Virus record (IMG/VR): IMGVR_UViG_2671180743_000008
Reading direction: 5' to 3' (one strand)
Source: a virus
Taxonomy: Duplodnaviria > Heunggongvirae > Uroviricota > Caudoviricetes
Length of the DNA: 46,266 nucleotides
Shown: positions 27,526 to 44,966 of the stretch, piece after piece
Numbering within the stretch: the first letter of the stretch is position 1
Layout: each line of letters opens with the position of its first letter
Position numbers and translations under genes: made by a program
The notes under the pieces: generated by a model
Databases searched by the model: none
What the model saw: the letters and a program-made list of their open reading frames with translations, nothing else
Told to the model about the DNA's origin: nothing

Positions 27526-28632
27526 GTGAACACCGTTGGCAAATCGGCATTCGTGGAGGCTGTCGGTCGGGCGAGCGATGATGCGGAAGGTTACTTGGAT
27601 TTTTTCAAAGGAGAGATAGGGAAAACACATCTGGCTCAGGAGCTGTGGACGCAGATTGATAACGGTCAGCTTGCGCCTGACCTGGCTGAAATCAGGACGT
27701 CCATTACGGATGTCAGCAATGAAATCACGCAGACCGTCAATAAGAAACTGGAAGACCAGAGTGCGGCAATTCAGCAGATACAGAAGGTTCAGGTTGATAC
27801 AAATAATAATCTGAACAGCATGTGGGCTGTGAAGCTGCAACAGATGAAGGACGGACGCCTTTATATTGCGGGTATCGGTGCCGGTATTGAGAATACGCCA
27901 GCAGGAATGCAGAGTCAGGTGCTGCTGGCGGCAGACAGGATTGCGATGATTAATCCTGCGAATGGCAACACAAAGCCGATGTTTGTTGGTCAGGGCGATC
28001 AGATATTCATGAACGACGTGTTCCTGAAACGCCTGACGGCTCCCACCATTACCAGCGGCGGTAATCCTCCGGCATTTTCCCTGACACCGGACGGAAAACT
28101 GACCGCTAAAAATGCAGATATCAGTGGCAGTGTGAATGCGAACGCCGGGACGCTCAACAATGTCACAATTAATGAGAACTGTCAGATTAAGGGGAAACTG
28201 TCAGCCAACCAGATTGAAGGCGATATAGTCAAAACAGTGGGTAAGGCTTTTCCGCGGGACTCCCGGGCACCGGAGCGGTGGCCATCAGGGACCATTACCG
28301 TCAGGATTTATGACGATCAGCCTTTTGACAGGCAAATTGTTATTCCGGCGGTGGCATTCAGCGGCGCTAAACATGAGCGGGAGAATAACGATATTTATTC
28401 GTCATGCCGCCTGATAGTACGGAAAAACGGTGCTGAAATTTATAACCGTACCGCGCTGGATAATACGCTGATTTACAGTGGTGTTATTGATATGCCAGCT
28501 GGTCGCGGCCACATGACGCTGGAGTTTTCGGTGTCAGCATGGCTGGTGAATAACTGGTATCCCACAGCAAGTATCAGCGATTTGCTGGTTGTGGTGATGA
28601 AGAAAGCCACCGCAGGCATCAGTATCAGCTGA
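27526..28632 (+). pseudogene. Lambdoid host-specificity protein J, C-terminal fragment
   Basis: Open frame starts abruptly right after the G terminator with no plausible start or RBS (first codon GTG); followed by lom, stf and tfa in the lambda order J-lom-stf-tfa; family call from memory of lambda J. Confidence 0.6.
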
Positions 28633-28699
28633 ATTTTATAACCCATATACGGGCGCCAGAAATGGCGCCTTTTTTATTGCAGAAAAGCGAGAGGTAATT

Positions 28700-29299
28700 A
28701 TGCGTAAAGTTTGTGCAGCCATTTTGTCCGCAGCCATTTGCCTGGCCGTATCCGGTGCGCCTGCATGGGCGTCTGAACATCAGTCCACACTGAGCGCGGG
28801 GTATCTTCATGCCCGTACGAACGCTCCCGGCAGCGATAATCTGAACGGGATTAACGTGAAATACCGTTATGAGTTTACGGACGCGCTGGGGCTGATTACG
28901 TCCTTCAGTTATGCCAATGCTGAGGATGAGCAAAAAACGCACTACAGCGATACCCGCTGGCATGAAGATTCCGTGCGTAACCGCTGGTTCAGCGTGATGG
29001 CGGGGCCGTCTGTACGCGTGAATGAATGGTTCAGCGCGTATGCGATGGTGGGTGTGGCTTACAGCCGTGTGTCGACTTTCTCCGGGGATTATCTCCGCGT
29101 AACTGACAACAAGGGGAAAACGCACGATGTGCTGACCGGAAGTGATGACGGTCGCCACAGCAACACGTCTCTGGCGTGGGGGGCTGGCGTGCAGTTTAAC
29201 CCGACCGAATCCGTGACCATTGACCTTGCTTATGAAGGTTCCGGTAGTGGTGACTGGCGAACGGATGCATTTATTGTTGGTATCGGATACCGTATCTGA
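28700..29299 (+). CDS. lom: Lom (Ail/PagC/Lom-family outer-membrane beta-barrel protein)
   Basis: 199 aa with signal peptide; INVKYRYEFTD, VMAGP, SAYAMVGVA and C-terminal AYEGSGSGDWRTDAFIVGIGYRI line up with lambda Lom. Confidence 0.9.
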   Translation: MRKVCAAILSAAICLAVSGAPAWASEHQSTLSAGYLHARTNAPGSDNLNGINVKYRYEFTDALGLITSFSYANAEDEQKTHYSDTRWHEDSVRNRWFSVMAGPSVRVNEWFSAYAMVGVAYSRVSTFSGDYLRVTDNKGKTHDVLTGSDDGRHSNTSLAWGAGVQFNPTESVTIDLAYEGSGSGDWRTDAFIVGIGYRI

Positions 29300-29404
29300 C
29301 AACAGACGCCGATTTATCTTCTGTAAATATTGTTATGATACGCAGGTTCATCCACCTTATGGGGTGAACTGCGTTTGAGGAAACGTAAAGTTACACTGTC
29401 CTGA

Positions 29405-29437
29405 AGCCCGTGGCGTCACTGCTGCGGGCTTTTTTTA
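29405..29437 (+). terminator. Rho-independent terminator after lom
   Basis: AGCCCG ... CGGGCT stem followed by TTTTTTT. Confidence 0.65.
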
Positions 29438-29450
29438 TTGGTGGAAAAGT

Positions 29451-32207
29451 ATGACAGTAAAAATTTCTGGCGTGCTTAAAGATGGCACAGGAAAACCAGT
29501 ACAGAACTGCACCATTGTGCTGAAGGCCAGACGAACCAGCAGCACGATGGTGGTGAACACGGTGGCCTCTGAAAATCCGGATGAAGCCGGACGTTACAGC
29601 ATGGATGTTGAGCATGGTCAGTACAGCGTCACCCTGCTGGTTGAAGGTTTTCCGCCTTCACATGCCGGGACCATTACCGTCTATGAAGGTTCCAGACCAG
29701 GTACGCTGAATGATTTTCTCGGTGCCATGACGGAGGATGATGTCCGACCGGAGGCACTGCGCCGCTTTGAGCAGATGGTGGAAGAGGTGTCACGTAACGC
29801 CTCCGCGGTTGCACAGAATACGGCAGCCGCGAAAAAATCAGCCAGCGAGGCGGCAACTCATGCAACCGATGCTGCAGCCTCAGCACGTGCCGCCAGCACG
29901 TCAGCCGGACAGGCCGCGTCGTCGGCTCAGTCAGCGTCTTCCAGCGCAGGAACGGCATCGACAAAGGCCCGTGAAGCAGCAAAAAGTGCTGCTGCAGAGT
30001 CATCAAAAAGCGCGGCAGCTACCAGCGCCAGTGCCGCGAAAACGTCAGAAACGAATGCCGCAGCATCACAAAAATCGGCAGCCACTTCTGCATCCACAGC
30101 GACCACGAAGGCGTCAGAAGCTGCCACCTCGGCACGGGGTGCGGCGGCCTCAAAAGAGGCAGCGAAATCTTCAGAAACGAATGCATCATCAAGTGCCAGT
30201 AGTGCAGCTTCCTCGGCAACGGCGGCAGGAAATTCCGCGAAGGCGGCAAAAACGTCCGAGACGAACGCTAAGTCTTCTGAAACAGCAGCGGGACAGAGCG
30301 CCTCAGCTGCGGCAGGTTCAAAAACAGCGGCTGCATTATCTGCCAGTGCCGCGTCAACAAGTGCCGGGCAGGCCTCAGCCAGTGCCACCGCCGCCGGAAA
30401 ATCGGCAGAAAGCGCCGCATCATCCGCTTCAACAGCCACAACGAAGGCTGGCAAAGCCACTGAGCAAGCCACTGCAGCAGCGAGGTCTGCTTCTGCAGCA
30501 AAAACCTCTGAAACAAATGCAAAGACTTCAGCAGACAATGCTGCTTCCTCTAAGGCAGCAGCCGCATCGTCAGCCAGTTCAGCGGCGTCATCGGCATCAT
30601 CTGCGTCTGCTTCAAAAGATGAGGCGACCAGACAAGCGTCAGCAGCGAAAGGTAGTGCCACGACAGCAACAACGAAAGCATCAGAGGCGGCAGGCAGTGC
30701 GACGGCTGCATCTCAGAGCAAAGTTGCTGCTGAATCCGCGGCAACGCGCGCCGAGACAGCAGCAAAACGGGCAGAGGATATTGCATCCGCCGTGGCGCTG
30801 GAGGATGCGAGCACGACGAAAAAGGGGATAGTACAGCTCAGCAGTGCGACCAACAGCACTTCCGAGTCACTGGCGGCAACGCCAAAAGCGGTTAAGGCGG
30901 TAATGGGTGAAACGAACAAGAAAGCGCCCTTAAATAGTCCTGCACTGACCGGAACGCCAACAACACCAACTGCGCGACAGGGAACGAATAATACCCAAAT
31001 CGCAAGCACGGCTTTCGTTATGGCTGCGATTGCCGCCCTTGTAGATTCGTCACCTGATGCACTGAACACGCTGAACGAGCTGGCTGCGGCGCTGGGCAAC
31101 GACCCGAATTTTGCGACCACCATGACTAACGCGCTTGCGGGTAAGCAACCGAAAGATGCCACCCTGACGGCGCTGGCCGGACTTACTACTGCGGCAGGCA
31201 AGTTTCCGTATTTTACGGGGAATGATGTCGCCAGCCTGGCAACCCTGACAAAAGTCGGGCGGGATATTCTTGCGAAATCGACCGTTGCTGCCGTTATCGA
31301 ATACCTCGGTTTACAGGAAACGGTAAACAAGGCTGGTAACGCCGTTCAGCGTTCCGGCGATAAAATGACCGGAGAACTGAAAATTGGCACGGTGAATGCG
31401 CTGCGAATTTTCAATGATACCTTCGGTCTAATTTTCCGTCGTTCAGAAGATTTTCTTCATTTCATTCCGACGGCTGAAGGACAAGGCGAAAACGGTAATA
31501 TCGGCCCATTAAGGCCATTCGCTATAAATCTGAGAACAGGTGCTATATCTGTCAGCCACGGGGCCAAAATTAAAGGAGGTCTAGCTATTGGAGCTACTGA
31601 TAACGCACTGGGTGAAAACTCCATTGTTCTGGGAGATAACGACACCGGATTTAGGCAAGATGGAGATGGTATTATTAGCTTCTATTCAAATGGTTCGCGC
31701 ATCGGACATATTGATGAGTTAGGATTACATCTTTATAAAGATATTGAATCTAATGGCAGCAATTTTAGATTAAAAAGTAATTACCGCCACCACATTACAT
31801 TCGCCAACGAAGACGGAAGAATTCGTATGTTTTTGTGGAAAGATAACGGTGGTGATGGTGTTCATATTAATAACGGTTCAGATGGTGGTGGTGATTTCAT
31901 TTTTAAAACAGATGGGGGATTTGCGCTGGGAAGTGGTGCGCAAGTTGCGTCTAGTGGCGATATTTATGGTTCAGTGTGGGAAAACAACTGGTTAAGCACA
32001 TGGCTGCATAATCATGTCGTTCGGGATATTCGTCTTGGCAGCATTGAATATAAAAACGTATGGCGCGACTACGGCTTTGGCGATGCGTCAGGTTATGTTT
32101 TAACAGCCGCAATTAACAGCAATGCGGATGATATTGTCGACACTGTTGCCAGAAGGCCAATTCAGAAATTGATTGGGGGAATATGGTACAACGTGGGGAG
32201 TGTTTAA
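29451..32207 (+). CDS. stf: Lambdoid side tail fibre protein Stf (tip variant B)
   Basis: 918 aa; long Ala/Ser/Thr-rich repetitive shaft; C-terminal half homologous to H but not identical to copy 1 in the shaft (GIVQLSSATNSTSES versus [15 protein letters not shown]); contains a gix-like site. Confidence 0.85.
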   Translation: MTVKISGVLKDGTGKPVQNCTIVLKARRTSSTMVVNTVASENPDEAGRYSMDVEHGQYSVTLLVEGFPPSHAGTITVYEGSRPGTLNDFLGAMTEDDVRPEALRRFEQMVEEVSRNASAVAQNTAAAKKSASEAATHATDAAASARAASTSAGQAASSAQSASSSAGTASTKAREAAKSAAAESSKSAAATSASAAKTSETNAAASQKSAATSASTATTKASEAATSARGAAASKEAAKSSETNASSSASSAASSATAAGNSAKAAKTSETNAKSSETAAGQSASAAAGSKTAAALSASAASTSAGQASASATAAGKSAESAASSASTATTKAGKATEQATAAARSASAAKTSETNAKTSADNAASSKAAAASSASSAASSASSASASKDEATRQASAAKGSATTATTKASEAAGSATAASQSKVAAESAATRAETAAKRAEDIASAVALEDASTTKKGIVQLSSATNSTSESLAATPKAVKAVMGETNKKAPLNSPALTGTPTTPTARQGTNNTQIASTAFVMAAIAALVDSSPDALNTLNELAAALGNDPNFATTMTNALAGKQPKDATLTALAGLTTAAGKFPYFTGNDVASLATLTKVGRDILAKSTVAAVIEYLGLQETVNKAGNAVQRSGDKMTGELKIGTVNALRIFNDTFGLIFRRSEDFLHFIPTAEGQGENGNIGPLRPFAINLRTGAISVSHGAKIKGGLAIGATDNALGENSIVLGDNDTGFRQDGDGIISFYSNGSRIGHIDELGLHLYKDIESNGSNFRLKSNYRHHITFANEDGRIRMFLWKDNGGDGVHINNGSDGGGDFIFKTDGGFALGSGAQVASSGDIYGSVWENNWLSTWLHNHVVRDIRLGSIEYKNVWRDYGFGDASGYVLTAAINSNADDIVDTVARRPIQKLIGGIWYNVGSV
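31294..31319. other. gix/pix-like crossover site inside stf
   Basis: TTATCGAATACCTCGGTTTACAGGAA, same sequence and orientation as the site in H. Confidence 0.75.
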
Positions 32208-32208
32208 G

Positions 32209-32535
32209 ATGATGCACCTGAAAAATATTAAGGCCGGGAATCCGAAAACACCGGAACAATACCAGCTAACTAAAAAACCGCTGGGATACCTCATTCGCGT
32301 GTCTGAGTGGTGGGAGTTCAACGGCGAACCCGGAACATTCAAGATTGATGTTGGCACGCTGGACAGTGGCGTGACGGAGGAAATGTATCTGGAAATGGAG
32401 CGGTTGATTGCTGATGCCCGCCCGGTCAGCCGCCACATGACAGGGCTGAATATCATTCAGGAGATTCAGGGAGATATTTTCGCGGCAGCAGCAACTTACG
32501 ACGGTGAAGTCATTACCATTTATCCGGACGATTAA
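32209..32535 (+). pseudogene. Chimeric ORF: tfa N-terminus (23 codons) fused in frame to the C-terminal part of gene I
   Basis: [23 protein letters not shown] then PLGYLIRVSEWWEF...ITIYPDD, which is identical to the end of gene I at about 24665..24925; junction at about 32277/32278. Confidence 0.75.
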
Positions 32536-32537
32536 GC

Positions 32538-34451
32538 ATGAGTACCACAACACGAAAATTTAAAACCATTATCACCGATACGGGTGCAAAAAAATTAGCG
32601 CAGGCAACCGCGCCAGATGGGAAACCTGTCCGCCTGACACATATGGCCGTGGGTGACGGCGGCGGTACTTTACCCACGCCAGACAGTAAGCAGACCCGTC
32701 TTGTGCATGAGGTGTGGCGACATACCGTTAATCGCGTCACCCTGGACGCAACACATCAGAACCACATTATTGCGGAGCTGGTTATTCCTCCTGAAACGGG
32801 CGGATTCTGGATCCGGGAAATTGGTGTGTTTGATGAGCACGGCGATTTGATCGCGGTAGGCAATACTGCCGAAAGTTACAAGCCAACCGTTGCCGAAGGA
32901 TCCGGACGTGCACAAACATTTCGCACCATTCTGACCGTATCCAGCACTGCCACTGTGGCGCTTACCGTGGATAACACCATGGTGATGGCCACAGTGAATT
33001 ACGTGGATGACAAACTGAAAGAGCATGAACAGTCACGACGTCACCCGGACGCCTCGCTGACCGCAAAAGGCCTTGTCCAGCTCAGCAACGCCACCAACAG
33101 CACGTCTGAAACGCTGGCAGCGACACCAAAAGCCGTTAAGGCAGTAATGGATGAAACGAACAAGAAAGCCCCATTAAACAGCCCGGCACTGACCGGAACG
33201 CCAACAACACCAACTGCGCGACAGGGAACGAATAATACCCAAATCGCAAGCACGGCTTTCGTTATGGCTGCGATTGCCGCACTTGTAGACTCTTCGCCTG
33301 ATGCACTGAACACACTGAACGAGCTGGCGGCGGCGCTGGGCAACGACCCGAATTTTGCGACCACCATGACTAACGCGCTTGCGGGTAAGCAACCGAAAGA
33401 TGCCACTCTGACGGCGCTGGCGGGGCTTGCTACTGCGGCAGACAGGTTTCCGTATTTTACGGGGAATGATGTCGCCAGCCTGGCAACCCTGACAAAAGTC
33501 GGGCGGGATATTCTTGCGAAATCGACCGTTGCCGCCGTTATCGAATACCTCGGTTTACAGGAAACGGTAAACAAGGCTGGTAACGCCGTTCAGCGTTCCG
33601 GCGATAAAATGACCGGAGAACTGAAAATTGGCACGGTGAATGCGCTGCGAATTTTCAATGATACCTTCGGTCTAATTTTCCGTCGTTCAGAAGATTTTCT
33701 TCATTTCATTCCGACGGCTGAAGGACAAGGCGAAAACGGTAATATCGGCCCATTAAGGCCATTCGCTATAAATCTGAGAACAGGTGCTATATCTGTCAGC
33801 CACGGGGCCAAAATTAAAGGAGGTCTAGCTATTGGAGCTACTGATAACGCACTGGGTGAAAACTCCATTGTTCTGGGAGATAACGACACCGGATTTAGGC
33901 AAGATGGAGATGGTATTATTAGCTTCTATTCAAATGGTTCGCGCATCGGACATATTGATGAGTTAGGATTACATCTTTATAAAGATATTGAATCTAATGG
34001 CAGCAATTTTAGATTAAAAAGTAATTACCGCCACCACATTACATTCGCCAACGAAGACGGAAGAATTCGTATGTTTTTGTGGAAAGATAACGGTGGTGAT
34101 GGTGTTCATATTAATAACGGTTCAGATGGTGGTGGTGATTTCATTTTTAAAACAGATGGGGGATTTGCGCTGGGAAGTGGTGCGCAAGTTGCGTCTAGTG
34201 GCGATATTTATGGTTCAGTGTGGGAAAACAACTGGTTAAGCACATGGCTGCATAATCATGTCGTTCGGGATATTCGTCTTGGCAGCATTGAATATAAAAA
34301 CGTATGGCGCGACTACGGCTTTGGCGATGCGTCAGGTTATGTTTTAACAGCCGCAATTAACAGCAATGCGGATGATATTGTCGACACTGTTGCCAGAAGG
34401 CCAATTCAGAAATTGATTGGGGGAATATGGTACAACGTGGGGAGTGTTTAA
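32538..34451 (+). CDS. H: Tail fibre protein H, copy 2 (recombinant: H copy 1 N-terminus plus stf tip B)
   Basis: 637 aa; identical to copy 1 up to [11 protein letters not shown], then identical to the stf C-terminus ([13 protein letters not shown]...WYNVGSV); the switch coincides with the gix-like site. Confidence 0.85.
33538..33563. other. gix/pix-like crossover site inside H copy 2
   Basis: TTATCGAATACCTCGGTTTACAGGAA, same orientation as the other two intragenic sites. Confidence 0.75.
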
Positions 34452-34452
34452 G

Positions 34453-34980
34453 ATGATGCACCTGAAAAATATTAAGGCCGGGAATCCGAAAACACCGGAA
34501 CAATACCAGCTAACTAAAAAAGCGGGCGTGGTATGGCTCTTTTGCGAAGATGGCAAAAACTGGTATGAGGAACAAAAGAATTTTCAGCCAGACACCATAA
34601 AAATTGCTTACGATGAGAACAACATCATCGTTGCTGTCAGTAAAGACGTTTCAACTATTAATCCTGAAGGGCTAAGCATAGTTGAAGTTCCTGATATTAC
34701 GGCAAATCGTCACGCAGACAATAACGGAAAATGGATGTTTCTGGATGGTAAAGTAGTAAAGAGGGAATATACAGAACAGGAACTGCAACAACAGGCCGAA
34801 TCACAAAAGGCCGCATTGCTTTCCGAAGCTGAATCAGTCATCCAGCCGCTGGAACGCGCTGTCAGGCTGAATATGGCGACGGACGAGGAACGCACACGAC
34901 TGGAAGCATGGGAACGCTACAGTGTTCTGGTCAGCCGTGTGGATACGGCAAATCCTGAATGGCCACAAAAGCCTGAATAA
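34453..34980 (+). CDS. tfa: Tail fibre assembly protein Tfa (partner of tip B)
   Basis: Start at [23 protein letters not shown]; 175 aa; follows H copy 2 with a 1-nt gap. Confidence 0.85.
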
Positions 34981-34984
34981 AAAT

Positions 34985-35004
34985 TAAGGCCCGATAGCGG
35001 GCCT
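34985..35004. terminator. Bidirectional hairpin terminator between convergent tfa genes
   Basis: AAGGCCCGATAGCGGGCCTT lying between the stops of the plus-strand tfa (34980) and the minus-strand tfa (35009). Confidence 0.6.
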
Positions 35005-35008
35005 TCTC

Positions 35009-35542
35009 TCATTCTGGTTGTTCGGGAAACGTTACTGGCAGGCTGGAGGTGTCTGTGGATTCGACCTTCTGCGCATAGAGCATCCACTCGGTTAATTTTT
35101 GTTTATTCTCATCGGAAATGATGCCCAGCTGTAGCTGAGAGTCCCACAGCTGGGTTTTATCCCTGACGAGCTGCAGCAGGCTCTGCTTTTCATTTTCCGC
35201 TTGTTGCCTTTGCTCTTCCTCGGTATAAGTTCGCTTTATCACCGCACCATCTTTGAACATCCAGTTGCCCGAAATATCAGCCCGGCGATTTGCTGTAATA
35301 TCAGGCAACTCAACGACACTTAAACCTTCTGGATTAATTGCTGATACATCCTTGTCTATAGCAATAATTATTCCCTCAACTGTGTAAGCCAGTTTTATTG
35401 TATCCTCCTGAAAGTTTTTTAATTCCTCATGCCAATTTTTTCCATCTTCGGACCATAACCAGATAACATCAAAATTCTTTGTTAGCTGGTATTGTTCAAC
35501 GGTTTTTGGATTACCTGCGACAATGTTTTTTAAATGCTGCAT
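35009..35542 (-). CDS. Tail fibre assembly protein Tfa (inverted orientation, partner of tip C)
   Basis: 177 aa; [23 protein letters not shown]-terminus typical of Tfa; opposite strand to the expressed fibre genes, as in Mu G / e14 P invertible segments. Confidence 0.8.
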
Positions 35543-35694
35543 GATTATACCTGCGATACGTTATACCATGTTCCGTTAATTAACTTTTGTATTGGTCTGA
35601 ATACTGCCGGATCATCACCATCGACTTCACCGATAATACCAAGCCCCGTGATTACATGGCCTGATTTTTCATACATCACGCCTTTCTTCATGGT

Positions 35695-36306
35695 CTAAAC
35701 AACTCGTGTGCCAAGTCTGACATCTCTCACATAGCGGGAATCAAAGTTACCGTAATCCGAGGGATTAACACGTCCCGTAATATTTATGGTTTTATTACTT
35801 TGAATGCTTCCGGAGACAAAGCGCATAACATGGACGTTATTAGCATAAACATCCAGATTACCATCGCCTTTTTGTTTAAAGCCCGTGTCATTATCACCCA
35901 ATACAATCGAATTACCGCCAAGAGCACTGGATGTTCCGATACCCAGTGCACCATTCAGTTGACCACCAGATAACGGCAGTGCACCAACATCTCCTGCTGA
36001 AGGTTTTCTGGTGGTGTAAAATTCGGACCAGTCGGCTTCAAAACCATAACCATCACGGGCTGAACGATAAAAAATACCGCCATTTTTATAATTAATCCGA
36101 AACTGAGCTGCAGGACAACTTCCTTCTCCCATATAAAAATGAATAATTAACGTTGATGCACCACTAATAGTTGCGTTATAGGCTCCGCTACTCCAGTTCC
36201 ATCCAACTGCTTTATCATTCGCAACGGTGCTTCCTGTTTTCCCTAAGGCAAACGCACCAACATGACTTGCTTTTAATGTGATATCGGAGGAACCATCAAA
36301 AGCCAC
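35695..36306 (-). pseudogene. Alternative tail-fibre tip segment (variant C), promoterless and probably frameshifted
   Basis: Fibre C-terminal domain motifs ([26 protein letters not shown]); the frame ends prematurely at ...DVRLGTRVV*, while the expected fibre end (...[17 protein letters not shown]) is encoded in another frame at about 35543..35690. Confidence 0.65.
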
Positions 36307-36453
36307 ATTGCTTATTTTCCTGGCAGTTTTTAATTTTGCAGCTGTAGAAGCATTGCCGGATAGTTCACCAGAAAGGCCACCGCTGAATGTTTGTCGATTA
36401 GTCCAGGTATTCGCTGTACTGAGTAACGGTATTTTCTCCCCGCTTGTGCCGAG

Positions 36454-36479
36454 TTCTCGTAAACCGAGGTTTTAGATAA
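36454..36479. other. gix/pix-like crossover site (inverted orientation), next to the truncated invertase
   Basis: TTCTCGTAAACCGAGGTTTTAGATAA, close to the Mu gix sequence as I recall it (TTCCTGTAAACCGAGGTTTTGGATAA); inverted relative to the three intragenic sites. Confidence 0.75.
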
Positions 36480-36533
36480 TGGCGGTTTCTGGCCTGCATG
36501 GCATGATTTGCGCTTTTGGACGGGAGATTCAGC

Positions 36534-36716
36534 GTGCTGATTGGCTATGTAAGGGTATCAACAAATGACCAGAATACAGACCTGCAACGAAACGCTCTTG
36601 TTTGTGCAGGATATGAACAAATATTTGAAGATAAATTAAGCGGAACAAGGACAGGCCGACCTGGATTAAAACGTGCTTTAAAGCGCCTTCAAAAAGGTGA
36701 CGCACTGGTTGTCTGA
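36534..36716 (+). pseudogene. Truncated Gin/Pin-family serine DNA invertase (N-terminal about 60 codons)
   Basis: GTG start then VLIGYVRVSTNDQNTDLQRNALVCAGYEQIFEDKLSG...KGDALVV*; versus the intact copy a TGG to TGA change gives a premature stop, after which the sequence diverges. Confidence 0.8.
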
Positions 36717-36914
36717 AAACTGGACTGACTGGGTCACTGTATGCGGCATCTTGTCGTGCTGGTGGTGGAAGCCTAGAAAAAGTATCGGGTGTTGCTGAAC
36801 CGTGTTGATACATCAACTGCACCTGATATTGAGTGGCCTACGAACCCTGTCAGGGAGTAATCATTGGGATTATGCCGCAGCACGTCTTAAGCAAGAACGT
36901 GCTGCGGTTGGATG

Positions 36915-37583
36915 CTATTTTTTCCCTGAAGCGGAAAACATTACTACAGTACCTTGAACCCTGGTTTTAACATTCTCGAAATGCTCTGAGAGTATATGTG
37001 TTAAGCCTTCTTCGGAATCTTTTGTGTTTGAAAAGATGCCTTTCTGATTGTAAATGCGCATCAGTTTTTGACCGAAGCTATTGTGCACAACTCCATCGCC
37101 AAGAATTGTGGCTCCGTATAGAGTTCCATCAATTAATTTTTGTTTATTCTCGTCGGAAATAATGCCCAGCCGTAGCTGTGAGTCCCATAGCTGGGTTTTA
37201 TCCCTGACGAGCTGTAGCAGGCTTTGCTTTTCATTTTCCGCTTGTTGCCTCTGCTCTTCCCCGGTATAAGTTCGCTTTATCACTACGCCATCTTTGAACA
37301 TCCATTTACCTGAAATATCAGCCCGGCGATTTGCTGTAATATCAGGAACCTCAACGACGCTTGCGCCTTCCGGATTAATTGCTGAAACATCCTTTTCAAT
37401 ACAAATAATAACGCCGTTGTGGTCATAGACCATTTTCAACGTATCAGGCTGAAAGTTCTTTTGTTCCTCATACCAGTTTTTCCCATCCTCTGTATAAAGC
37501 CATTTGATGTTAAATTGTTTCGTTAGCTGGTATTGCTCTTTTGTTTCAGGATTACCAGCAGAAATGTTTTTTAAGTGCATCAT
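36915..37583 (-). CDS. Tail fibre assembly protein Tfa (inverted orientation, partner of tip D), atypical C-terminus
   Basis: 222 aa; the first 160 or so residues are Tfa-like ([22 protein letters not shown]...); the last 45 or so are unrelated to other Tfa ends and run into the deletion scar next to the truncated invertase. Confidence 0.7.
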
Positions 37584-37585
37584 CG

Positions 37586-38329
37586 TTAAATACTCCCCGC
37601 GTTATACCACGTCCCATTAATGCAATACTGAATTGGCCTTGCCTGAGTTGTATCAATTAGTTCATCTCTGTTTGAGTTAACGGAACCGGTAACAACATAA
37701 CCTGACCTGTCAGACCATCCGGGACCATTCCATGTCTGAACAGATAACAGACCACCAAGGCGAATACCTGTAATAAACCTTGAGTTACATTCTGCCTGCG
37801 TATATGCACCAACATCTCCCGCAGAGGGTTTGCGGGTTGTGGTGTAAAACTCTGACCAGTCAGCTTCAAAGCCATAACCATCACGCGCTGAACGATAAAA
37901 AATACCGCCGTTCCTGTAATTCACGCGGAACTGTACAGCAGGGCAGCTCCCCGTATTCATATTGAAGTGGAGGATTAATGTCGATGCGCCACCAATGTTT
38001 GCGTTATAGACCCCGCTATTCCAGTTCCAGCCAACAGCTTTATCATTTCCGACAGTGCTTCCTGTTTGCCCTAAAGCAAATGCAGGTTGTTGATTTTTCG
38101 TGTTGTAGTCTCGTCGCCAGCCAGGAGCGTAAGCATCACCATGATTAATATAAGTGAATTGAGCGTTAGTAATTCCGCCACCGCTGGACGTGCTCGGCGT
38201 GGTAACGCGTATGGTCATTGCGCCGCGAGTGCCAATAACTTCCACCACAGCACCTGCAAGACAAATATTTCCGCAACCTGTATCTGTAATGACCTTATTA
38301 TTTGCATAAGCCCATGAGCCTTTGCACAT
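37586..38329 (-). CDS. Alternative tail-fibre tip segment (variant D), promoterless
   Basis: 247 aa listed; fibre tip ending ...[17 protein letters not shown] immediately upstream of its tfa; the open frame probably continues up to the crossover site at about 38530. Confidence 0.7.
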
Positions 38330-38530
38330 CCAGTAAGGATGGTTAAATGCTCCCTGACTCTCCAGCCACGAAATAAATTGCGCGGTTGTCCAGACCTGAC
38401 TATCGCCACCAATATTCAGCCATGAGCTATATGCGCGGCAGGCACCAATATTTTTGGTGAAGGTATCTTTCCCCGGAATATCTGCGCCGTTCTGGTTTTT
38501 CTGTAATGCGCCAGAAGCCTGATTTACCGT

Positions 38531-38556
38531 TTCCTGTAAACCGAGGTTTTAGATAA
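38531..38556. other. gix/pix-like crossover site (inverted orientation), next to the intact invertase
   Basis: TTCCTGTAAACCGAGGTTTTAGATAA; the 55 bp that follow match the leader of the truncated invertase copy. Confidence 0.8.
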
Positions 38557-38610
38557 TGGCCGTTTCCGGCCTGCATGGCATGATTTGCGCTTTTGGACGG
38601 GAGATTCAGC

Positions 38611-39198
38611 GTGCTGATTGGCTATGTAAGGGTATCAACAAATGACCAGAATACAGACCTGCAACGAAACGCTCTTGTTTGTGCAGGATGTGAACAAATA
38701 TTTGAAGATAAATTAAGCGGGACAAAGACAGACCGACCGGGATTAAAACGCGCTTTAAAGCGCCTTCAAAAAGGTGACACGCTGGTTGTCTGGAAACTGG
38801 ATCGCCTCGGGCGAAGCATGAAACATCTGATTTCTCTCGTCGGGGAACTACGGGAGCGAGGAATTAATTTTCGCAGTCTGACCGACAGCATAGATACATC
38901 TTCTCCAATGGGGCGTTTTTTCTTCCACGTGATGGGTGCCCTGGCTGAAATGGAACGTGAATTAATTGTTGAACGTACACTGGCCGGACTGGCGGCAGCA
39001 CGCGCACGGGGGCGCACAGGCGGACGTCGACCGAAGCTGACAAAAGAACAGCATGAGCAAATAGCAAGGCTGATCAAAAACGGGCACGACAGAAAACAAC
39101 TGGCAATAATTTACGGCATTGGTATATCGACGATTTATCGTTACCACCCCGCAGGAGAATCAATCGGAACAATAGAGAAGAGTCAGGAAACAAAATAA
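38611..39198 (+). CDS. pin: Gin/Pin/Hin-family serine DNA invertase
   Basis: GTG start; VLIGYVRVSTNDQNTDLQRNALVCAGCEQIFEDKLSGTKTDRPGLKRALKRLQKGDTLVVWKLDRLGRS with the catalytic Ser in the YVRVST motif; C-terminal HTH; closely resembles Mu Gin / e14 Pin. Confidence 0.9.
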   Translation: MLIGYVRVSTNDQNTDLQRNALVCAGCEQIFEDKLSGTKTDRPGLKRALKRLQKGDTLVVWKLDRLGRSMKHLISLVGELRERGINFRSLTDSIDTSSPMGRFFFHVMGALAEMERELIVERTLAGLAAARARGRTGGRRPKLTKEQHEQIARLIKNGHDRKQLAIIYGIGISTIYRYHPAGESIGTIEKSQETK

Positions 39199-39226
39199 CC
39201 GCTAATCTGACCATTAGCGGTTTTTG
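39198..39226. terminator. Bidirectional terminator between pin and U
   Basis: ACCGCTAAT ctgacc ATTAGCGGT hairpin followed by TTTTT on the plus strand and an A-rich run on the other side. Confidence 0.7.
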
Positions 39227-39233
39227 TGTTAAA

Positions 39234-39728
39234 TCAGAACAACCCTTTAACTGAACTGGCCGCGCTGTTAAGGGATGATGTTACCTTATCTTTGAAGCCG
39301 GACAGCATATCGCTGAACGATGAGGATTGCAGGCGCTCCCGCAAATCCTCATCACAGCGTTCAAGAGTCAGTGAAAATTCTATCTTTTTCGCCTTACCGT
39401 AGCGATCAAACTCGGAGCGGGTCGTATTCGTTTCGGTCAGGACATACATGCCGTAAATCTGCCCGACGCCATCAATCAGAGGCCAGGGTCGTCCTGTATA
39501 CGCCTGCGTGGTCAGCAGCGACAGCGACACTTCGCCACCTGTAATTTCAGGATAAAGCACACCAGAAAGAACGATGCGCTCATCACCTGCACCGATATAC
39601 TGCCAGCTTGCCGAACGGTTAACGCGTTCATTTTTCACATGCCGCCAGCTTTTGTTTTGCTGTAACTGCTGATGCGGCAATGTACGCAGCTCAAAAACAA
39701 ACATGCCGTAGATCATCATCATGGCCAT
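39234..39728 (-). CDS. U: Tail protein U
   Basis: 164 aa; N-terminus (IYGMFVFELRTLPHQQLQQNKSWRH ... LSGVLYPEITGG) resembles P2 gpU. Confidence 0.8.
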   Translation of the reverse strand: MAMMMIYGMFVFELRTLPHQQLQQNKSWRHVKNERVNRSASWQYIGAGDERIVLSGVLYPEITGGEVSLSLLTTQAYTGRPWPLIDGVGQIYGMYVLTETNTTRSEFDRYGKAKKIEFSLTLERCDEDLRERLQSSSFSDMLSGFKDKVTSSLNSAASSVKGLF

Positions 39729-39734
39729 GACTCC

Positions 39735-42578
39735 TCAATCTTTATCGTAAAAACTGCCACGCCCGGCACGGGCGCGCCGTTCCATTTCTGCCCTGACCAT
39801 TTCACCGACCAGTTTCGCCAGTTCGCGGGGATTCTGCGTAACAACGTTATGCAGATGAACATGAATTTCACCACCAAATCCGGAGGCAACAGGCTCCCGG
39901 TTACGGGAAGTTACAGGAACTGATGCCACTGGAGAGCGTATGGCCTCCGCCACCGGGCGGGAGCTGGCCGCAACAACAGGGACCAGCGCCGGAGGCAGCG
40001 GAGCCGGGACCACGGGTGTGATATTAATTGCGGGGGCAGGCTTACTGACCTGCGCAATCTTCCGCTCCTGCCACTCCCCACGAACAGCAAGTGCGCGGGG
40101 CAGGTTCTTAAAGACAATATCGCCGGGGCCAATGCGTTTTTTCGTCTCATCAACCAGCTTACCTGTGTTATCAGCAATTTTGCTGAGTCTGCGTAGCGTC
40201 CCGGTATTGCTGTCTGTGAGCGGTTTGTTGTCTTTGGGTTTATCACCTCCGGTGCCATTGCCATTTTCCACAGGCTTCGGCGGATTGATTTTCGCCAGGT
40301 CCCCCTGAAGCAAGGCAACCTTGTCCTGAAGAATGGCCGCACGCTGTGCGTCTTCGATTTTCTTGCGCGCCCTTTCCGCTTCATCCGGAAGGACGCCAAG
40401 TTTTTCAAGTATCCACGCCAGCGTATCCAGTAGCATTTTTGCAGGTGTCAGAACAAGTTGTAACGCACCGCCAAGAACGTTACCGAATATCTCGCCAGCA
40501 CTGGCACATTTATCCAGCGTTTCCTTGCTGGACTCCATCGGTGACAGCAGCGATTTAAACCAGTTAAAGACCTGAATAATCCCATCGCGCACGACATCAA
40601 AAACAGGGCCAAACCGTTCAAAGGTTTCGCGCAACGGGGTCAGCCTTTCCATAATCCCGCTGAACACCCCGGCAAAAAATGCCCTGATGGGATCCCAGTA
40701 TTTCCAGATAAGAACGGCAGCTCCGGCAAGCGCAGCCACGATAAGACTAACCGGACTGAACAGCGCCCCGATAGCGCCACCAAGTAAAGAAACGGAACCC
40801 GTCACCATTCCCCATAATGCAGGCAGAACCCTGACAACATTCATTGATTCGGTCAGGAGAGAAAAACCGAGACGCAACGTAGCCAGCTTCCCGTGAAGCA
40901 CCCCAATAACCAGAGACAACGAACCAACCGTTGCTGTTGTCGCCAGCAGTGCGCCTCCCGCTATCAGTAACTGGCGCGTCAGTGCCGGGTGGGCCTGCGC
41001 CAGCGCCGTCACCTTTGAGACAACCCGCGTGAGCCACTGCGTGACAGAACGCAGCGGACCGTCAACCAGATCACTGATGCGAATACGCAGACCTTCCCAT
41101 GCACTGCCGAGTGATTTCAGGTTGCCATCAAGGTTATTGGCCATAACCTTTGCCGTGCGTTCTGCCTCACCGCGCGCGCCTTCAAGTTCTTTTCTCAGTT
41201 TGGCTAAGAAGCCGTCACCTGCCGCATCAACGAGGCCCATAAATGATGTGAAAGCCTCTTCTCCGGCAATGTCCTTAAAGAACGATACCCGGTCAACCTC
41301 CCCGTATTTGCGGGTGGCTTTATAGAGATCGGCCAGCACATTCTCCATCGGGCGCATTTTGCCTTTGGCGTCAGCAACTGACACCCCCAGCTCTTTCAGT
41401 GCTTCTGCCGCTGCCTTTGGCGGTGATGACAGATTGGCCAGGCTTTTACGCAACGCTGTACCTGCATCACTCCCCCTGATACCCATCTTCGCCAGCACGC
41501 CCGCCATCGCTGCGGCCTGCTCCAGCGATATTCCCAGCTTACCCGCCACCGGACCTGCATATTTCATGGTTTCGCCCAGTGCGCGAAGGTCAGTGTTGGT
41601 ACGGGTAAACGCTGCGGTAAGTGTGTCACCGACCCGGTCCATCTGGTCAGCAGAGAGGCCGAACTGCGTCAGGATATTGGAACCAATATCCGCCGTCTCG
41701 CCGAGGTCCATACCGCCAGCCGTTGCCATGCTCAGCACGCCGGGAAGCGCAGCCTGAATGGCCTGCGGTGTGAAACCAGCCATTGCAAGAAATGCCTGTC
41801 CACTGGCGGCATCGCCTGCGGTGAACTGCGTTTCAGAGCCAAGTTTTAACGCCTGCTCACGCAGCGCCTTAAACTGCGGGCTGTTTTTATCGATTCGCGT
41901 CAGTGCCTGAACACGGGACATCTCTTTCCCGAACCCGATAGCGGGCTGCAAAAAACGCCCGGCAGCATAGCCGCCCGCTGCCGCCGCACCTGTTGCCAGC
42001 GCACCACCTGTTTTCAGTTTTCCCGCTGTTTCCTGCGCGCGTGAATACCGCTCACGCGCCTGCGTTACACGCGCAAGCGCCCGCCGTTCGCGTTCAAGCT
42101 GGTTGTTGTATTGTCCGGTGCGTCTGATGGCCTGCTGGATGGTGTTATCGCTGCCTGTCAGGGAAATGCCGTGGCGTTTCAGCTCTCCGCCAAGTTCCCG
42201 CATTTTCTGAATTTCCCGTGTGCGCGATTCATTCAGGCGTTCAAGCCGGGTGCTTAACTGCTGCATCAGCTTTTGTTGTTTTTCGCTGAGCACTGTACCC
42301 GTGCGTTGTAACTGATTAAGGGCGTTAAGCTGGCGTCGTGCTTTCACGATGCCCGCATCCGCTTTACTGACAGCGTCACGGGCGCGCTCAAATGAACGCG
42401 CCTGACGCTCGAGATTTTTGATCGCCCCCTGCGTTCGCTGGATGGAGTCACCAAACTGCCCCATCAGGCGGCGGGCGTTTTCGGCAGGCCGGGTCAGCCT
42501 GTCAACGGCGCTGAAAGCGACCCGGATATCAAGAGTCTTCATTGTCTGCATTCCCGCTGCGAAGTGCCGCCCGCTCAC
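39735..42578 (-). CDS. T: Tail tape-measure protein T
   Basis: 947 aa; long alpha-helical, Ala/Gly-rich with hydrophobic central segments; lies between E and U as in P2. Confidence 0.85.
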   Translation of the reverse strand: MSGRHFAAGMQTMKTLDIRVAFSAVDRLTRPAENARRLMGQFGDSIQRTQGAIKNLERQARSFERARDAVSKADAGIVKARRQLNALNQLQRTGTVLSEKQQKLMQQLSTRLERLNESRTREIQKMRELGGELKRHGISLTGSDNTIQQAIRRTGQYNNQLERERRALARVTQARERYSRAQETAGKLKTGGALATGAAAAGGYAAGRFLQPAIGFGKEMSRVQALTRIDKNSPQFKALREQALKLGSETQFTAGDAASGQAFLAMAGFTPQAIQAALPGVLSMATAGGMDLGETADIGSNILTQFGLSADQMDRVGDTLTAAFTRTNTDLRALGETMKYAGPVAGKLGISLEQAAAMAGVLAKMGIRGSDAGTALRKSLANLSSPPKAAAEALKELGVSVADAKGKMRPMENVLADLYKATRKYGEVDRVSFFKDIAGEEAFTSFMGLVDAAGDGFLAKLRKELEGARGEAERTAKVMANNLDGNLKSLGSAWEGLRIRISDLVDGPLRSVTQWLTRVVSKVTALAQAHPALTRQLLIAGGALLATTATVGSLSLVIGVLHGKLATLRLGFSLLTESMNVVRVLPALWGMVTGSVSLLGGAIGALFSPVSLIVAALAGAAVLIWKYWDPIRAFFAGVFSGIMERLTPLRETFERFGPVFDVVRDGIIQVFNWFKSLLSPMESSKETLDKCASAGEIFGNVLGGALQLVLTPAKMLLDTLAWILEKLGVLPDEAERARKKIEDAQRAAILQDKVALLQGDLAKINPPKPVENGNGTGGDKPKDNKPLTDSNTGTLRRLSKIADNTGKLVDETKKRIGPGDIVFKNLPRALAVRGEWQERKIAQVSKPAPAINITPVVPAPLPPALVPVVAASSRPVAEAIRSPVASVPVTSRNREPVASGFGGEIHVHLHNVVTQNPRELAKLVGEMVRAEMERRARAGRGSFYDKD

Positions 42579-43058
42579 GCCAGCTAACCACTTCGCCGGG
42601 CGTCATCATGAAGATTTCGGCGGGCGACCAGTTAAAAATGGCGGCAATATCCGCCACAAAGTCTTCTATGTGCTCAAAGCACACAACCGTGATCAGGCTT
42701 CCGTCGCCTGTTCGTTCTTCTCGCCAGAGTCCGCACCGCTCAAAAAATTTACGGCAACCACACATAACTGAATAAAGTCACGGGATGCCATTTTTTTGAT
42801 CGTCACTTCATCCAGTCGCGGTGATGTCACGCGTGACAGCAGCGTAAACATGGATTCCGCTTTCAAATTCAGCACATCAGACAGCGACAAATCTCGCAGA
42901 GATCCAGCCTGCTCAATAGCCCCGGTGATCTCCACATACGTGATTTTTTCGCCGCCTCGCTCAATTGGTTGGGTAAGTTTTACGCCACGCTCACTGGTTT
43001 CTTTCACAGTGTCAGCAACGACCGTGTTTTCGGTATCGATGTTTTTCGTCTCTTTCAT
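42529..43058 (-). CDS. E': Tail assembly chaperone E+E' (-1 programmed frameshift product)
   Basis: The -1 frame is open from the slippery site at 42741..42747 to the stop at 42529; by coordinate arithmetic the frame relationship is -1; same heptamer as I recall for P2 E/E'. Confidence 0.6.
42693..43058 (-). CDS. E: Tail assembly chaperone E
   Basis: 121 aa; ends ...AVNFLSGADSGEKNEQATEA; contains the slippery heptamer U UUU UUG (minus strand, 42747..42741). Confidence 0.8.
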   Translation of the reverse strand: MKETKNIDTENTVVADTVKETSERGVKLTQPIERGGEKITYVEITGAIEQAGSLRDLSLSDVLNLKAESMFTLLSRVTSPRLDEVTIKKMASRDFIQLCVVAVNFLSGADSGEKNEQATEA

Positions 43059-43112
43059 CAGGAAACTCCTTTCAGTCAGAGGCGACGCACTGCGCCGCCT
43101 GCATATTACTTA

Positions 43113-43625
43113 TCAGCCAAGCCCGAGCGCGGAACGGATGCGATCGGGCACAATGTCCCTGCCGTCCTTCCGGTAAATGAAGTTCAGCAGGTCAATCTCC
43201 CACAACGGGCGATCGTTAACACTCAGCTTGTAGTAGGTGTTTTTAATGGCGTAAGTGTGTGATGTGGCTTCGCCCTGTTTGGCTTCCCCCATATCAATTT
43301 CCGTCACACGTCCGCGCATTTCGACTTCATACAGGTCGCTTTCAGCGTCGGTGTAGTATTCACCCGCAAAACGCAGCAGCGTACCGTCAATCGTGCCGCC
43401 ATACTTAAGGAACAGCTCACGAACTGCGCCCCCCATGACAAAGCTCGCATCAAGCGCGGAGTCATCCAGGCCGAGATCAATACTTACCGCTCCCATCATG
43501 CCACCACCCCGGTAGCTGTCGGTTTTGCGCGTCAGCTTAGGCAGAGTGACGGACGTCACCTTACCCACTTCGTTTTCACCATCCACAAACAGCGTAAAAA
43601 AGCGAAGATGTTTTGGTACAGCCAT
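43113..43625 (-). CDS. FII: Tail tube protein FII
   Basis: 170 aa; immediately downstream of FI; P2 gpFII size. Confidence 0.85.
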   Translation of the reverse strand: MAVPKHLRFFTLFVDGENEVGKVTSVTLPKLTRKTDSYRGGGMMGAVSIDLGLDDSALDASFVMGGAVRELFLKYGGTIDGTLLRFAGEYYTDAESDLYEVEMRGRVTEIDMGEAKQGEATSHTYAIKNTYYKLSVNDRPLWEIDLLNFIYRKDGRDIVPDRIRSALGLG

Positions 43626-44809
43626 CAGGCACCTCCCAGCACCGCAAATGCGGGACCAAAGAATTCATCAGTAAACGACTGGTAAAGCTCCATGTCTTCC
43701 AGCGGGGGAACAGGCGTATATTTGTAGCGAATACGCACGCGCCCCTGACGTAAATTCGTGGTGCCGTTATCCACCACGTCATACCAGCACGACGCCCCAA
43801 TCAGTTTCCCGGCAGTAACCAGTGAATCCAGTTTTGCCCTGATGGCACCGATAACATCCTTCACGTTCGCAGGCGTCAGTGGACTGTCGATGGTTTCAAA
43901 CTGCGCTTCCGCAATTGAATCAGCCAGCACCTGTGCGGTTCGGGTATACACCTCAAAGATGTAGGCGTTCGTTTCCGGTGTGCGGTTGCCCCAGAAGCGG
44001 AACCCGTTGCGACGAATAATGGTCGTGATTTCTTTGTTGTTGAGGCTGTTGGCATCACTGTCTTCGGCCTGCAACGACCAGAACACATGCCTGGACATCC
44101 CCAGCACATTTTTAACCGGAACGTTGGACAGCGATTTGTGCCAGCCCTGCTCATGGTCAATGTACGCACGAAGGCCGCACGCATAGGCAGGCGCGGGGAA
44201 CGTTTCGTTTTTGCCACTTTTCGGGTTGTAGGCGATGAAGTCCGGCCATAAGAGCATCACCTCACGTTCGTTGAATTTCTGGCGGTAGGTAATTGCCTCA
44301 GCCATCGTGTTACAGTCATGACATGAGGCATACACAAACGCGCGCAGTTTACCCGCAATCACGCACAGGGATTTTGTCACCGCCTCCGTGTCCAGCTCCG
44401 GCGCGGCCAGAATACGCGGACGGTATCCGATGCTTTCATCCTGCTCTGCAACAAGCAGCGCATACATCCCCGTATAGCTGCCGTCAGATTCAGAACCACC
44501 GATAACCAGTTGATCCTGCGTTTTTCCGTCTTCTTCTTTGTGTTCAGCCACGCGAACGACGATCACCTTTGTGCTCACCTGGTCTGCGATGGCCTTAAGC
44601 GCACGATAAAGCGTCCCCGTTGTTCCGCATTTTCCCAGCACGTCATTGACGCGGGGCAGCAGTGTGGGCTTGTTCAGCGGGAACAGCTCCGCGTCCGCAT
44701 CATCCGCCGTTGCCACGATACCGATAACGCTGGAATCAACATCGTTAATCGCTGTTACCAGGTCGGTATTTTCCGTAACACGGGCACCATGAAAACGAGT
44801 TTCACTCAT
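43625..44809 (-). CDS. FI: Tail sheath protein FI
   Basis: 394 aa; P2 gpFI size; first gene of the FI-FII-E-T-U block. Confidence 0.88.
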   Translation of the reverse strand: MSETRFHGARVTENTDLVTAINDVDSSVIGIVATADDADAELFPLNKPTLLPRVNDVLGKCGTTGTLYRALKAIADQVSTKVIVVRVAEHKEEDGKTQDQLVIGGSESDGSYTGMYALLVAEQDESIGYRPRILAAPELDTEAVTKSLCVIAGKLRAFVYASCHDCNTMAEAITYRQKFNEREVMLLWPDFIAYNPKSGKNETFPAPAYACGLRAYIDHEQGWHKSLSNVPVKNVLGMSRHVFWSLQAEDSDANSLNNKEITTIIRRNGFRFWGNRTPETNAYIFEVYTRTAQVLADSIAEAQFETIDSPLTPANVKDVIGAIRAKLDSLVTAGKLIGASCWYDVVDNGTTNLRQGRVRIRYKYTPVPPLEDMELYQSFTDEFFGPAFAVLGGA

Positions 44810-44966
44810 AGCTTCAACCCCTTGTATCCGTTAAATGATTCGGCAACAATCATCACCCACCACGCGCGTAATCTCACCCCTGCGCCATTCTCCCGCCACG
44901 GCGACAACAAAAAGCAGTAACCCCCTCCGCACGCACATGCGACCATGCCACACAGGGAGGGAGCAG

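Follow-up and report, generated by a model that had tools for sequence, protein, structure and literature searches.

The DNA analysed here (hereafter the window) is the whole of the short-read draft contig CXDL01000021.1 from assembly GCA_001253115.1. It is 46,266 bp long and holds a prophage with an invertible tail-fibre locus, in which genes for fibre tips and for tail fibre assembly chaperones (Tfa) are arranged around the crossover sites of a DNA invertase. In this locus one copy of the invertase is truncated, one fibre tip is interrupted and one tfa gene has lost its native end. Comparison with related prophages leads us to regard these marks of decay as probably being, for the most part, the scars of a lambda-like fibre module that was spliced into the invertible fibre region of a P2-like prophage. 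As judged from its sequence, the window is a P88-like (P2 family) prophage that carries a lambdoid J'-lom-stf inversion module of ~9.6 kb inside its invertible segment. Two inversion modules of known kinds have recombined to give this locus, which is prophage mosaicism of the ordinary sort and no novel type of system.

The first ~5.9 kb of the window hold the chromosomal genes nlpC, btuD, btuE and btuC and then a phage integrase, and this part shares 99.7% identity with E. coli O26 strains; the prophage is positioned between btuC and ihfA of an Escherichia-type chromosome. In the O26 strain RM8426 the same site holds another P2-like prophage, whose fibre module is without an inversion system and has a serine O-acetyltransferase in its place. 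The temperate phage P88 (Xuanwuvirus, Peduoviridae) is collinear with positions 5915..27518 and 37112..46084 of the window at 87-98% identity, and over the entire range 5915..46084 this collinearity is broken solely between 27520 and ~37131. The gene order of P88 in this region is gpI, fibre and tfa, then tfa' and tip' on the opposite strand, the DNA invertase, and finally gpU and the tape measure gene on the opposite strand; its tail-fibre genes display the arrangement of the Mu G type.

The break in collinearity is occupied by lambdoid sequence, for which a prophage of E. coli NCTC86 (locus L001) provides the reference. Positions 27520..31314 match L001 2003..5821 at 96.5% identity and take in the end of J (its C-terminal third), lom and, as far as a crossover site, the constant part of stf; 34428..36483 match 7855..5797 in inverted orientation at 94%, and 35195..37130 match 7483..9441 at 89%. 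A single continuous donor segment, L001 2003..9441, sits between P88 coordinates 25412 and 25476, a point within the P88-type invertible segment towards which two tfa genes converge. At the two outer junctions (L and R, Table 1) the joined sequences are separated by 1-2 nt of filler and share no common k-mer across the joint, and the P88 backbone has lost ~63 bp of intergenic sequence and 60 bp of the gene tfa-delta. The annotated gene order in NCTC86 is J, Lom, tail fibre, tfa, a second tfa and tail fibre on the minus strand, a 180-nt "recombinase, missing C-terminus", a "tail fiber assembly protein, missing N-terminus", a hypothetical protein and, on the minus strand, a class I S-adenosylmethionine (SAM)-dependent methyltransferase. 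Three features of the window had been taken as signs of decay.

The first of these is the truncated invertase. The block 36459..36724, which includes a crossover site, the leader and 60 codons, aligns with 38536..38801 beside the intact invertase at 95.9% identity, identity to the intact copy being ~96% across its leader (36480..36533) and coding part. This pairwise alignment bears out the earlier observation, made from the window alone, that the two copies share their leader and about 60 codons, after which TGA replaces TGG. That account also had the copies diverge, through a deletion, at the TGA itself, and here it needs correction: the TGA is a nonsense substitution, the reading frame continues for ~50 nt through invertase codons 62-77, which are closer to K-12 pinE than to the intact copy (ATGCGGCATCTTGTCGTGCTGGTGG being identical to pinE), and the deletion joint lies at ~36760-36766, where a GCTGG microhomology marks the passage from the invertase to a tfa 3' end. 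The idea that the sequence past the joint is a diverged invertase was likewise abandoned, as it encodes the C-terminus of a lambda-type Tfa, and the equivalent stretch in NCTC86 is the annotated tail fibre assembly protein without N-terminus. The truncated copy matches the Pfam family PF00239 over profile positions 2-69 of 145 and no HTH domain; having two in-frame TGA codons, and with the 3' half of the gene deleted, it is a pseudogene.

Over 36454..37131 the window differs from the NCTC86 lambdoid prophage at only 4 of 678 positions, and the TGA, TGA and TAG codons are all common to the two. To judge how widespread the invertase/tfa joint is, 5,426 complete E. coli genomes, which underlie all population counts given below, were searched with a 141-nt query centred on it: the joint is present in 538 of them at a coverage of at least 80%, and of the remaining genomes with a match, most of those sampled align only from query position 65-71 on, so that the joint is independently mapped. 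A figure of 3,076 genomes was set aside as a measure of prevalence, its query having consisted mostly of the tfa fragment and the methyltransferase. The near-identity to NCTC86, the three common stops and the frequency of the joint together indicate that the remnant was inherited and did not decay here. On this evidence the truncated invertase is an old allele, widespread at ~10% of complete E. coli genomes, and it came in as part of the lambdoid module.

Beyond the joint the window continues as ordinary lambdoid sequence, namely the tfa fragment, a hairpin followed by a T-run and the convergent 3' end of the methyltransferase gene, up to junction R. The hairpin is likely to be a bidirectional terminator, and a terminator scan made no call for 36876-36910. 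A 45-aa ORF (36833..36970), corresponding to the RefSeq hypothetical protein WP_001309429.1, extends from the tfa fragment into the 3' end of the methyltransferase gene; it crosses two gene remnants, is antisense to one of them and is probably spurious.

The second feature is the odd tfa gene, which was previously described as a Tfa N-terminus of some 160 residues with an unrelated 45-residue tail. The ORF concerned (36915..37583) is indeed chimeric and has lost the native Tfa C-terminus, with different proportions: its 222 codons comprise Tfa residues 1-150, a junction residue at 151, and methyltransferase residues 152-222. The Tfa part is 85% identical overall to P88 Tfa', whereas the last 26 native residues, which are retained in tfa-gamma and in P88 Tfa', are gone, and an alignment of the tfa paralogues confirms that the protein ceases to be a Tfa after residue 150. 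Its match to the Caudo_TAP family (PF02413) is confined to positions 2-105 of 131, the conserved C-terminal region being replaced by the 71 methyltransferase residues. These are the C-terminus of the 222-aa NCTC86 methyltransferase with a single K-to-R change, and many E. coli genomes have methyltransferase genes that match this 3' end at 100% nucleotide identity. The full-length NCTC86 protein matches the Pfam families Methyltransf_12, _23, _25 and _11 with a domain at residues 52-182; the chimera, with residues 152-222, gives no methyltransferase match. As the conserved C-terminal helical domain of Tfa is reported to mediate trimerisation (PMC9608196), the truncated protein, Tfa-delta', may well have lost its function.

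The tail of the chimera had also been assigned to the same deletion scar as the invertase. This cannot be maintained, as the boundary of junction R (~37130-37133) is ~370 bp from the invertase/tfa joint, the tail is the methyltransferase 3' end, and of the two joints one is found in 538 genomes and the other in none. Junction R is also absent from the representatives of the Genome Taxonomy Database (GTDB), and a sister assembly (L014) carries a native, intact 177-aa tfa-delta facing tfa-alpha, as in P88. The Tfa-methyltransferase junction thus appears to be a young event, particular to this isolate and separate from the invertase joint. An exact-protein look-up of the chimera came back empty, which is uninformative, since a gene of 222 aa is called at this very place in the source contig. 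The methyltransferase gene is also seen elsewhere: in E. coli FDAARGOS_943 (316518..317186) it stands at the end of another lambdoid prophage beside a frameshifted gene for an ipaH-type type III secretion system (T3SS) effector and tfa fragments, and a query with its 3' end matches 3,978 of the genomes, some of them in as many as 6 places. The gene seems to recur as cargo at the ends of lambdoid prophages.

The third feature is the fibre tip formerly called tip C, here tip-gamma, a silent cassette in which the preliminary description correctly located the break at DVRLGTRVV, and from which it concluded that a frameshift, perhaps a homopolymer error at about 35690, had moved the fibre C-terminus into a different frame. 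No frameshift is present and no homopolymer is involved, and this explanation was dropped: the translation of 35545..36480 (minus strand) runs in one frame to the fibre C-terminus past a single internal stop (...DVRLGTRVV-stop-TMKKGVMYEKSGHV...), and the intact NCTC86 homologue (...RVVQTMKKG...) has Gln at the position of the stop. The same TAG occurs in the assemblies GCA_900158275.1 and GCA_001250835.1, which differ from the window by 6 and 2 single-nucleotide polymorphisms (SNPs) over 4.3-4.7 kb, and this makes it a real inherited allele and rules out a read error. An 81-mer containing the TAG is found in 0 of the 5,426 genomes, the best matches being 1 nt off. The 49 residues lost include the RPIQ..INGTWYN end common to all four tips and align to Mu S 424-502 (5yvq_A) and Mu S' 422-486 (8ju3_A) at the distal end of the fibre, so that tip-gamma lacks an uninterrupted distal domain of the Mu S/S' type. 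The tip would therefore be expected to be non-functional unless the amber codon is suppressed. Its partner tfa-gamma is homologous to a lambdoid tfa of NCTC86, in inverted orientation. The sequence of the Mu S' structure, though found with tip-gamma as the query, also closely resembles the translation of the neighbouring cassette, tip-delta.

A further rearrangement lies to the left of these features. Positions 24668..25982 and 32278..33592 differ by one base, and 30831..32280 and 33075..34524 by 34, with 33 of them to the left of 31290 and the joint itself as the remaining one. Together they describe a duplication of 2,244 bp that adds a second H-type fibre gene, H2, which is H-type up to a 56-bp interval containing the crossover site sL3 and identical to the stf tip beyond it. 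The novel joint (junction M) creates a chimeric ORF (32173..32535) with a Tfa N-terminus and a gpI C-terminus in frame. The structure of H2 would arise if a tandem duplication were followed by loss of the DNA between two direct crossover sites. The plus strand of this one prophage consequently encodes three complete fibre genes, two of the P2-H type and one of the lambda-Stf type, with tip beta identical in Stf and H2; full-length tfa-alpha and tfa-beta' accompany these open fibre genes. The tip/chaperone cassettes alpha and beta, which would be the expressed ones in the assembled orientation, are intact, while the two silent ones of the four are predicted to be defective, gamma in its amber tip and delta in its truncated chaperone. 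With one invertase a pseudogene as well, the earlier inference of a cassette repertoire that is probably functional only in part holds good.

Two observations on these fibre genes may be added. The N-terminal half of Stf contains a tract rich in Ala, Ser, Thr and Lys, encoded by degenerate 33-nt repeats (29826..30527). In the tip-beta/tfa-beta region (31320..32280), the stretch 32150..32280 was used as a query and has 98.5-99.2% identity with fibre cassettes carried by E. coli plasmids of 93-100 kb in O111:H11 and Shiga toxin-producing E. coli (STEC) strains; going by size alone, one might guess these plasmids to be phage-plasmids, in which case one cassette would circulate among phage-plasmids, lambdoid prophages and P2-like prophages.

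Table 1. Features of the tail-fibre locus in window coordinates
Feature	Position	Strand	Sequence	Remarks
Fibre gene H1	24928..26964	+		678 aa, tip alpha
Crossover site sL1	25928..25953	+		Inside fibre gene H1
Junction L	27519..27520			Terminator after tfa-alpha / middle of lambdoid J gene; 1 nt filler; left end of module
Fibre gene stf	29451..32207	+		918 aa, tip beta
Crossover site sL2	31294..31319	+		Inside lambdoid stf gene
Junction M	32277..32278			Codon 35 of tfa-beta fused in frame to C-terminal part of gpI (Pfam Tail_P2_I); novel duplication joint
Fibre gene H2	32538..34451	+		637 aa, tip beta
Crossover site sL3	33538..33563	+		Inside fibre gene H2
tfa-gamma	35009..35542	-		Intact, 177 aa; silent cassette adjoining sR1; aligns over full length with P88 Tfa'
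tip-gamma	35545..36453	-		Silent C-terminal fibre cassette up to sR1; single frame, one amber; Pfam gp37_C
Amber codon	35695..35697	-		TAG for CAG (Gln), in frame; last 49 residues cut off
Crossover site sR1	36454..36479		TTCTCGTAAACCGAGGTTTTAGATAA	Inverted relative to the three fibre-gene sites; adjoins truncated invertase
Truncated invertase	36534..36716	+		60 Resolvase N-terminal codons from GTG at 36534, then TGA for TGG (36714-16)
pinE-like invertase codons (...MRHLVVLV...)	36717..36766	+		Second TGA at 36726-28; end at old deletion joint
Lambda-type tfa 3' fragment	36767..36860	+		Last 31 codons; TAG for TGG at 36774-76
Hairpin followed by T-run	36876..36910		CCGCAGCACGT...ACGTGCTGCGG	11-bp stem; between convergent tfa fragment and methyltransferase 3' end
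Class I SAM-dependent methyltransferase 3' end	36915..37130	-		71 codons and stop
Junction R	37131..37132			Methyltransferase fragment / tfa-delta; 2 nt (AA) from neither parent; patch of imperfect similarity ATAGAG..TCCA.TC
tfa-delta'	37133..37583	-		First 150 codons of P88-type Tfa'; reads in frame into methyltransferase fragment
tip-delta	37586..38530	-		Silent P88-like C-terminal fibre cassette, apparently intact; 96% identical to P88
Crossover site sR2	38531..38556		TTCCTGTAAACCGAGGTTTTAGATAA	Inverted relative to the fibre-gene sites; adjoins intact invertase; identical to P88 site
Intact Gin/Pin-family DNA invertase	38611..39198	+		195 aa, GTG start; same length as P88 invertase

Taken together, these observations suggest that a lambdoid piece running from the middle of J through lom and stf, with its own invertible segment, truncated invertase, tfa 3' fragment and methyltransferase 3' end, would have been inserted by illegitimate recombination between two convergent P88-type tfa genes. 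The truncated invertase with both its TGA codons and the tfa fragment would have come ready-made with this module, and the insertion itself would have destroyed the last 26 codons of tfa-delta and made the Tfa-methyltransferase chimera. The amber of tip-gamma would be a later point mutation passed on within this lineage, and the 2.2-kb local duplication, with its additional H-type fibre gene, would have come after the amber. The order insertion, amber, duplication is thus our best reconstruction of the events.

In the locus that would have resulted, three crossover sites lie on the left and two on the right, and one serine invertase of the Gin/Pin type is intact, as far as sequence can tell. 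The sites sL1, sL2 and sL3 are identical to one another, and all five 26-bp sites keep the Mu gix core AAACC-GA-GGTTT, with 1-4 differences from Mu gix; sharing a central dinucleotide, they flank the segment in inverted orientation, three pointing one way and two the other. The intact invertase combines a catalytic Resolvase domain (PF00239, 1.5e-50, profile positions 2-144 of 145) with a C-terminal HTH_7 (PF02796, 1.8e-13), as is typical of the class of ~190 aa. A putative recombinational enhancer can be placed in the intact gene by its likeness to Hin, whose enhancer is 65 bp long and lies ~100 bp from the site (PMC3798978). The GenBank record of Mu carries no annotation of the sis enhancer and so offers no reference for placing Fis sites.

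That a segment beside this remnant can flip is shown by other strains. Four Swedish isolates (NZ_CP023844, CP023826, CP023853 and CP023849) carry the same lambdoid module with the 180-nt invertase remnant. Between the near-isogenic urinary tract infection isolates 4/0 and 2/0 and the faecal isolates 4/1-1 and 4/4, a 3.1-kb segment beside the remnant, equivalent to 33538..36479 of the window, is exactly inverted. The flanks of 4/0 are 100% identical to those of 4/1-1 and 4/4 over 1,204 and 5,152 bp, and the inner half-sites are swapped, as expected for an inversion between both sites. The window itself has the block of tfa-beta', tfa-gamma and tip-gamma inverted relative to the remnant in comparison with NCTC86, and its sR1 is identical to the site beside the truncated invertase in 4/1-1 and NCTC86. 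The inverted segments, swapped half-sites and identical sR1, next to a remnant that is dead, point to inversion by an invertase acting in trans, and it is likely that the segment beside the dead copy is served in this manner. There is precedent in the PinQ protein of the Qin prophage, which inverts the segment of e14; invertases of the Pin family act on the segment of another prophage (PMC12529663). In the window an intact invertase gene is found 2.1 kb from sR1, and this one enzyme would serve all five sites in trans; the flipping was compared between those other strains, and invertase activity in this strain is presumed by extension from them.

An alternative to the remnant being a mere scar is that it was retained for a function: the truncated copy would be kept as a cis element, for the crossover site and an enhancer in its first ~180 bp, and the fusion would have made a working five-site multiple-inversion system distributing four tips among one fibre of the Stf type and two of the H type, with ~10% of genomes dependent on invertases in trans. 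We consider this unlikely, though it is not without attractions. The 5' 266 bp remain ~96% identical to the intact copy, codons 62-77 being closer to pinE; the conserved block takes in the stretch, ~100-165 bp from the site, in which Hin has its enhancer (PMC3798978); in other strains the identical site is seen to flip; and the gix core is kept at all five sites. Set against this, the enhancer of the intact gene is ~2.2 kb off, and as Fis-bound enhancers are effective at kilobase distances (PMC3798978) a second one is not needed. The enhancer in the remnant is putative, being placed by position, and both silent cassettes are damaged. Moreover the prophage exceeds the size of P88 (35.8 kb) by ~9.6 kb (~27%). 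From what is generally known of cos-packaging phages this extra length is probably beyond the capacity of a P2-type head, which makes selection for the host range of a virion doubtful. If the alternative were nevertheless true, ~10% of complete E. coli genomes would hold fibre segments that rely on the invertases of other prophages, forming a network of trans-dependency.

Somewhat less probable still is that the arrangement is an artefact, the contig having threaded together reads from two or three repeat-sharing prophages so that neither the chimera nor the nesting exists in the cell. Several points weigh against our preferred reading here. The source is a short-read draft whose contig contains exact repeats of kilobase length (1,315 bp with one mismatch and 988 bp with zero), and two orders of the blocks fit one set of junctions, so that the long-range arrangement is unproven. 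The insertion rests on one assembly: junctions L, M and R are each spanned in none of the complete genomes, and L014 has tfa-delta and tfa-alpha in native form. Four sister assemblies show four arrangements, in which some joins are N gaps only (458 N in L012, 8 in L014 and 2 in L015), and L014 and L012 change from H-type to stf-type sequence in a different common stretch (33533 = T), as graph path switching would give; that shift could be due either to recombination or to path switching by the assembler. An artefact is nevertheless hard to reconcile with the window, which contains no N, and in which L, M and R join non-homologous points with 1-2 nt of filler and no common k-mer. L and R would thus offer a de Bruijn assembler no path across, and they bracket one continuous donor segment at a single recipient point, unlike random mis-joins. 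The features within 34522..39198, a region that holds the whole of the present finding and is unchanged under either block order, are independent of how the repeats are threaded.

The sister assemblies L012, L014 and L015 share the H2 fibre and show insertion sequence (IS) elements, N gaps and an inverted block of tail genes, an rve-type transposase cutting tfa-gamma or tip-delta. A methyltransferase-gpI join in L014 was discarded as an alternative junction, being the 8-N scaffold gap.

The least credible reading is the one implied by the preliminary description, that a cassette-invertase unit was tandemly duplicated and decayed in situ, a single deletion of the invertase and tfa 3' ends and a frameshift in tip C ruining one copy: two direct-repeat units (tfa, tip, site and invertase 5' end) do exist and their invertase 5' blocks are 96% identical, but the tfa and tip parts are only ~79-80% identical, unit 1 (35009..37130) follows the NCTC86 lambdoid prophage collinearly and shares with it the three stops within 36454..37131, the DNA between the remnant and tfa belongs to other genes, the two joints are of unlike frequency and tip C is without a frameshift.

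With the insertion of a lambdoid module as the preferred reading, the locus is best annotated as a recombinant of two modules instead of one decaying cassette array. The ORF 36915..37583 should be called neither a normal Tfa nor a methyltransferase, and tip C an amber allele and not a sequencing frameshift. The case is a clear instance of the transfer of tail-fibre modules between lambdoid prophages and those of the P2-like kind. More generally, the flipping beside a dead invertase suggests that the host-range switches of a prophage can rely on the invertases of other resident prophages.

Among the systems to which the locus can be compared, P88 has a collinear backbone and the same module order, whereas in the window ~9.6 kb of additional DNA separates the tfa genes and tfa' is without its 3' end. 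The lambdoid prophage of NCTC86 and the Swedish isolates (at ompW/trp) has the same truncated invertase, stops, joint, tfa fragment and methyltransferase 3' end, and the NCTC86 homologues of tip-gamma and tfa-gamma are 94% identical to those of the window; in NCTC86 the module is part of a complete lambdoid tail operon with a full-length methyltransferase, while in the window it is cut in the middle of J and in the methyltransferase, and tip-gamma has acquired the amber. The e14 P segment with PinQ likewise has a fibre segment in one prophage module and the invertase encoded elsewhere, and differs in that an anti-phage phenotype was shown for it by means of the chimeric StfE2 (PMC12529663). 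A further comparison is with the G segment of Mu with Gin, together with the C segment of P1 with Cin and the P segment of e14 with Pin. As in these, the 26-bp sites are nearly identical to gix, one site lies in a fibre gene and the other beside the invertase with two convergent tip-tfa cassettes between them, and the invertase is a 195-aa protein with Resolvase and HTH_7 domains; the cassette DNA is 85-92% identical to that of Mu, D108, P1 and P7. The window departs from Mu G in having five sites instead of two, three fibre genes with left sites, a second, truncated invertase, and foreign DNA (J', lom, stf and the methyltransferase fragment) within the invertible segment. Min of plasmid p15B is an evolved array with six sites in one fibre gene, several 3' cassettes and one invertase of the Gin family. 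The window likewise has more than two sites and one Gin-family invertase, while its additional sites come from the fusion of phage modules.

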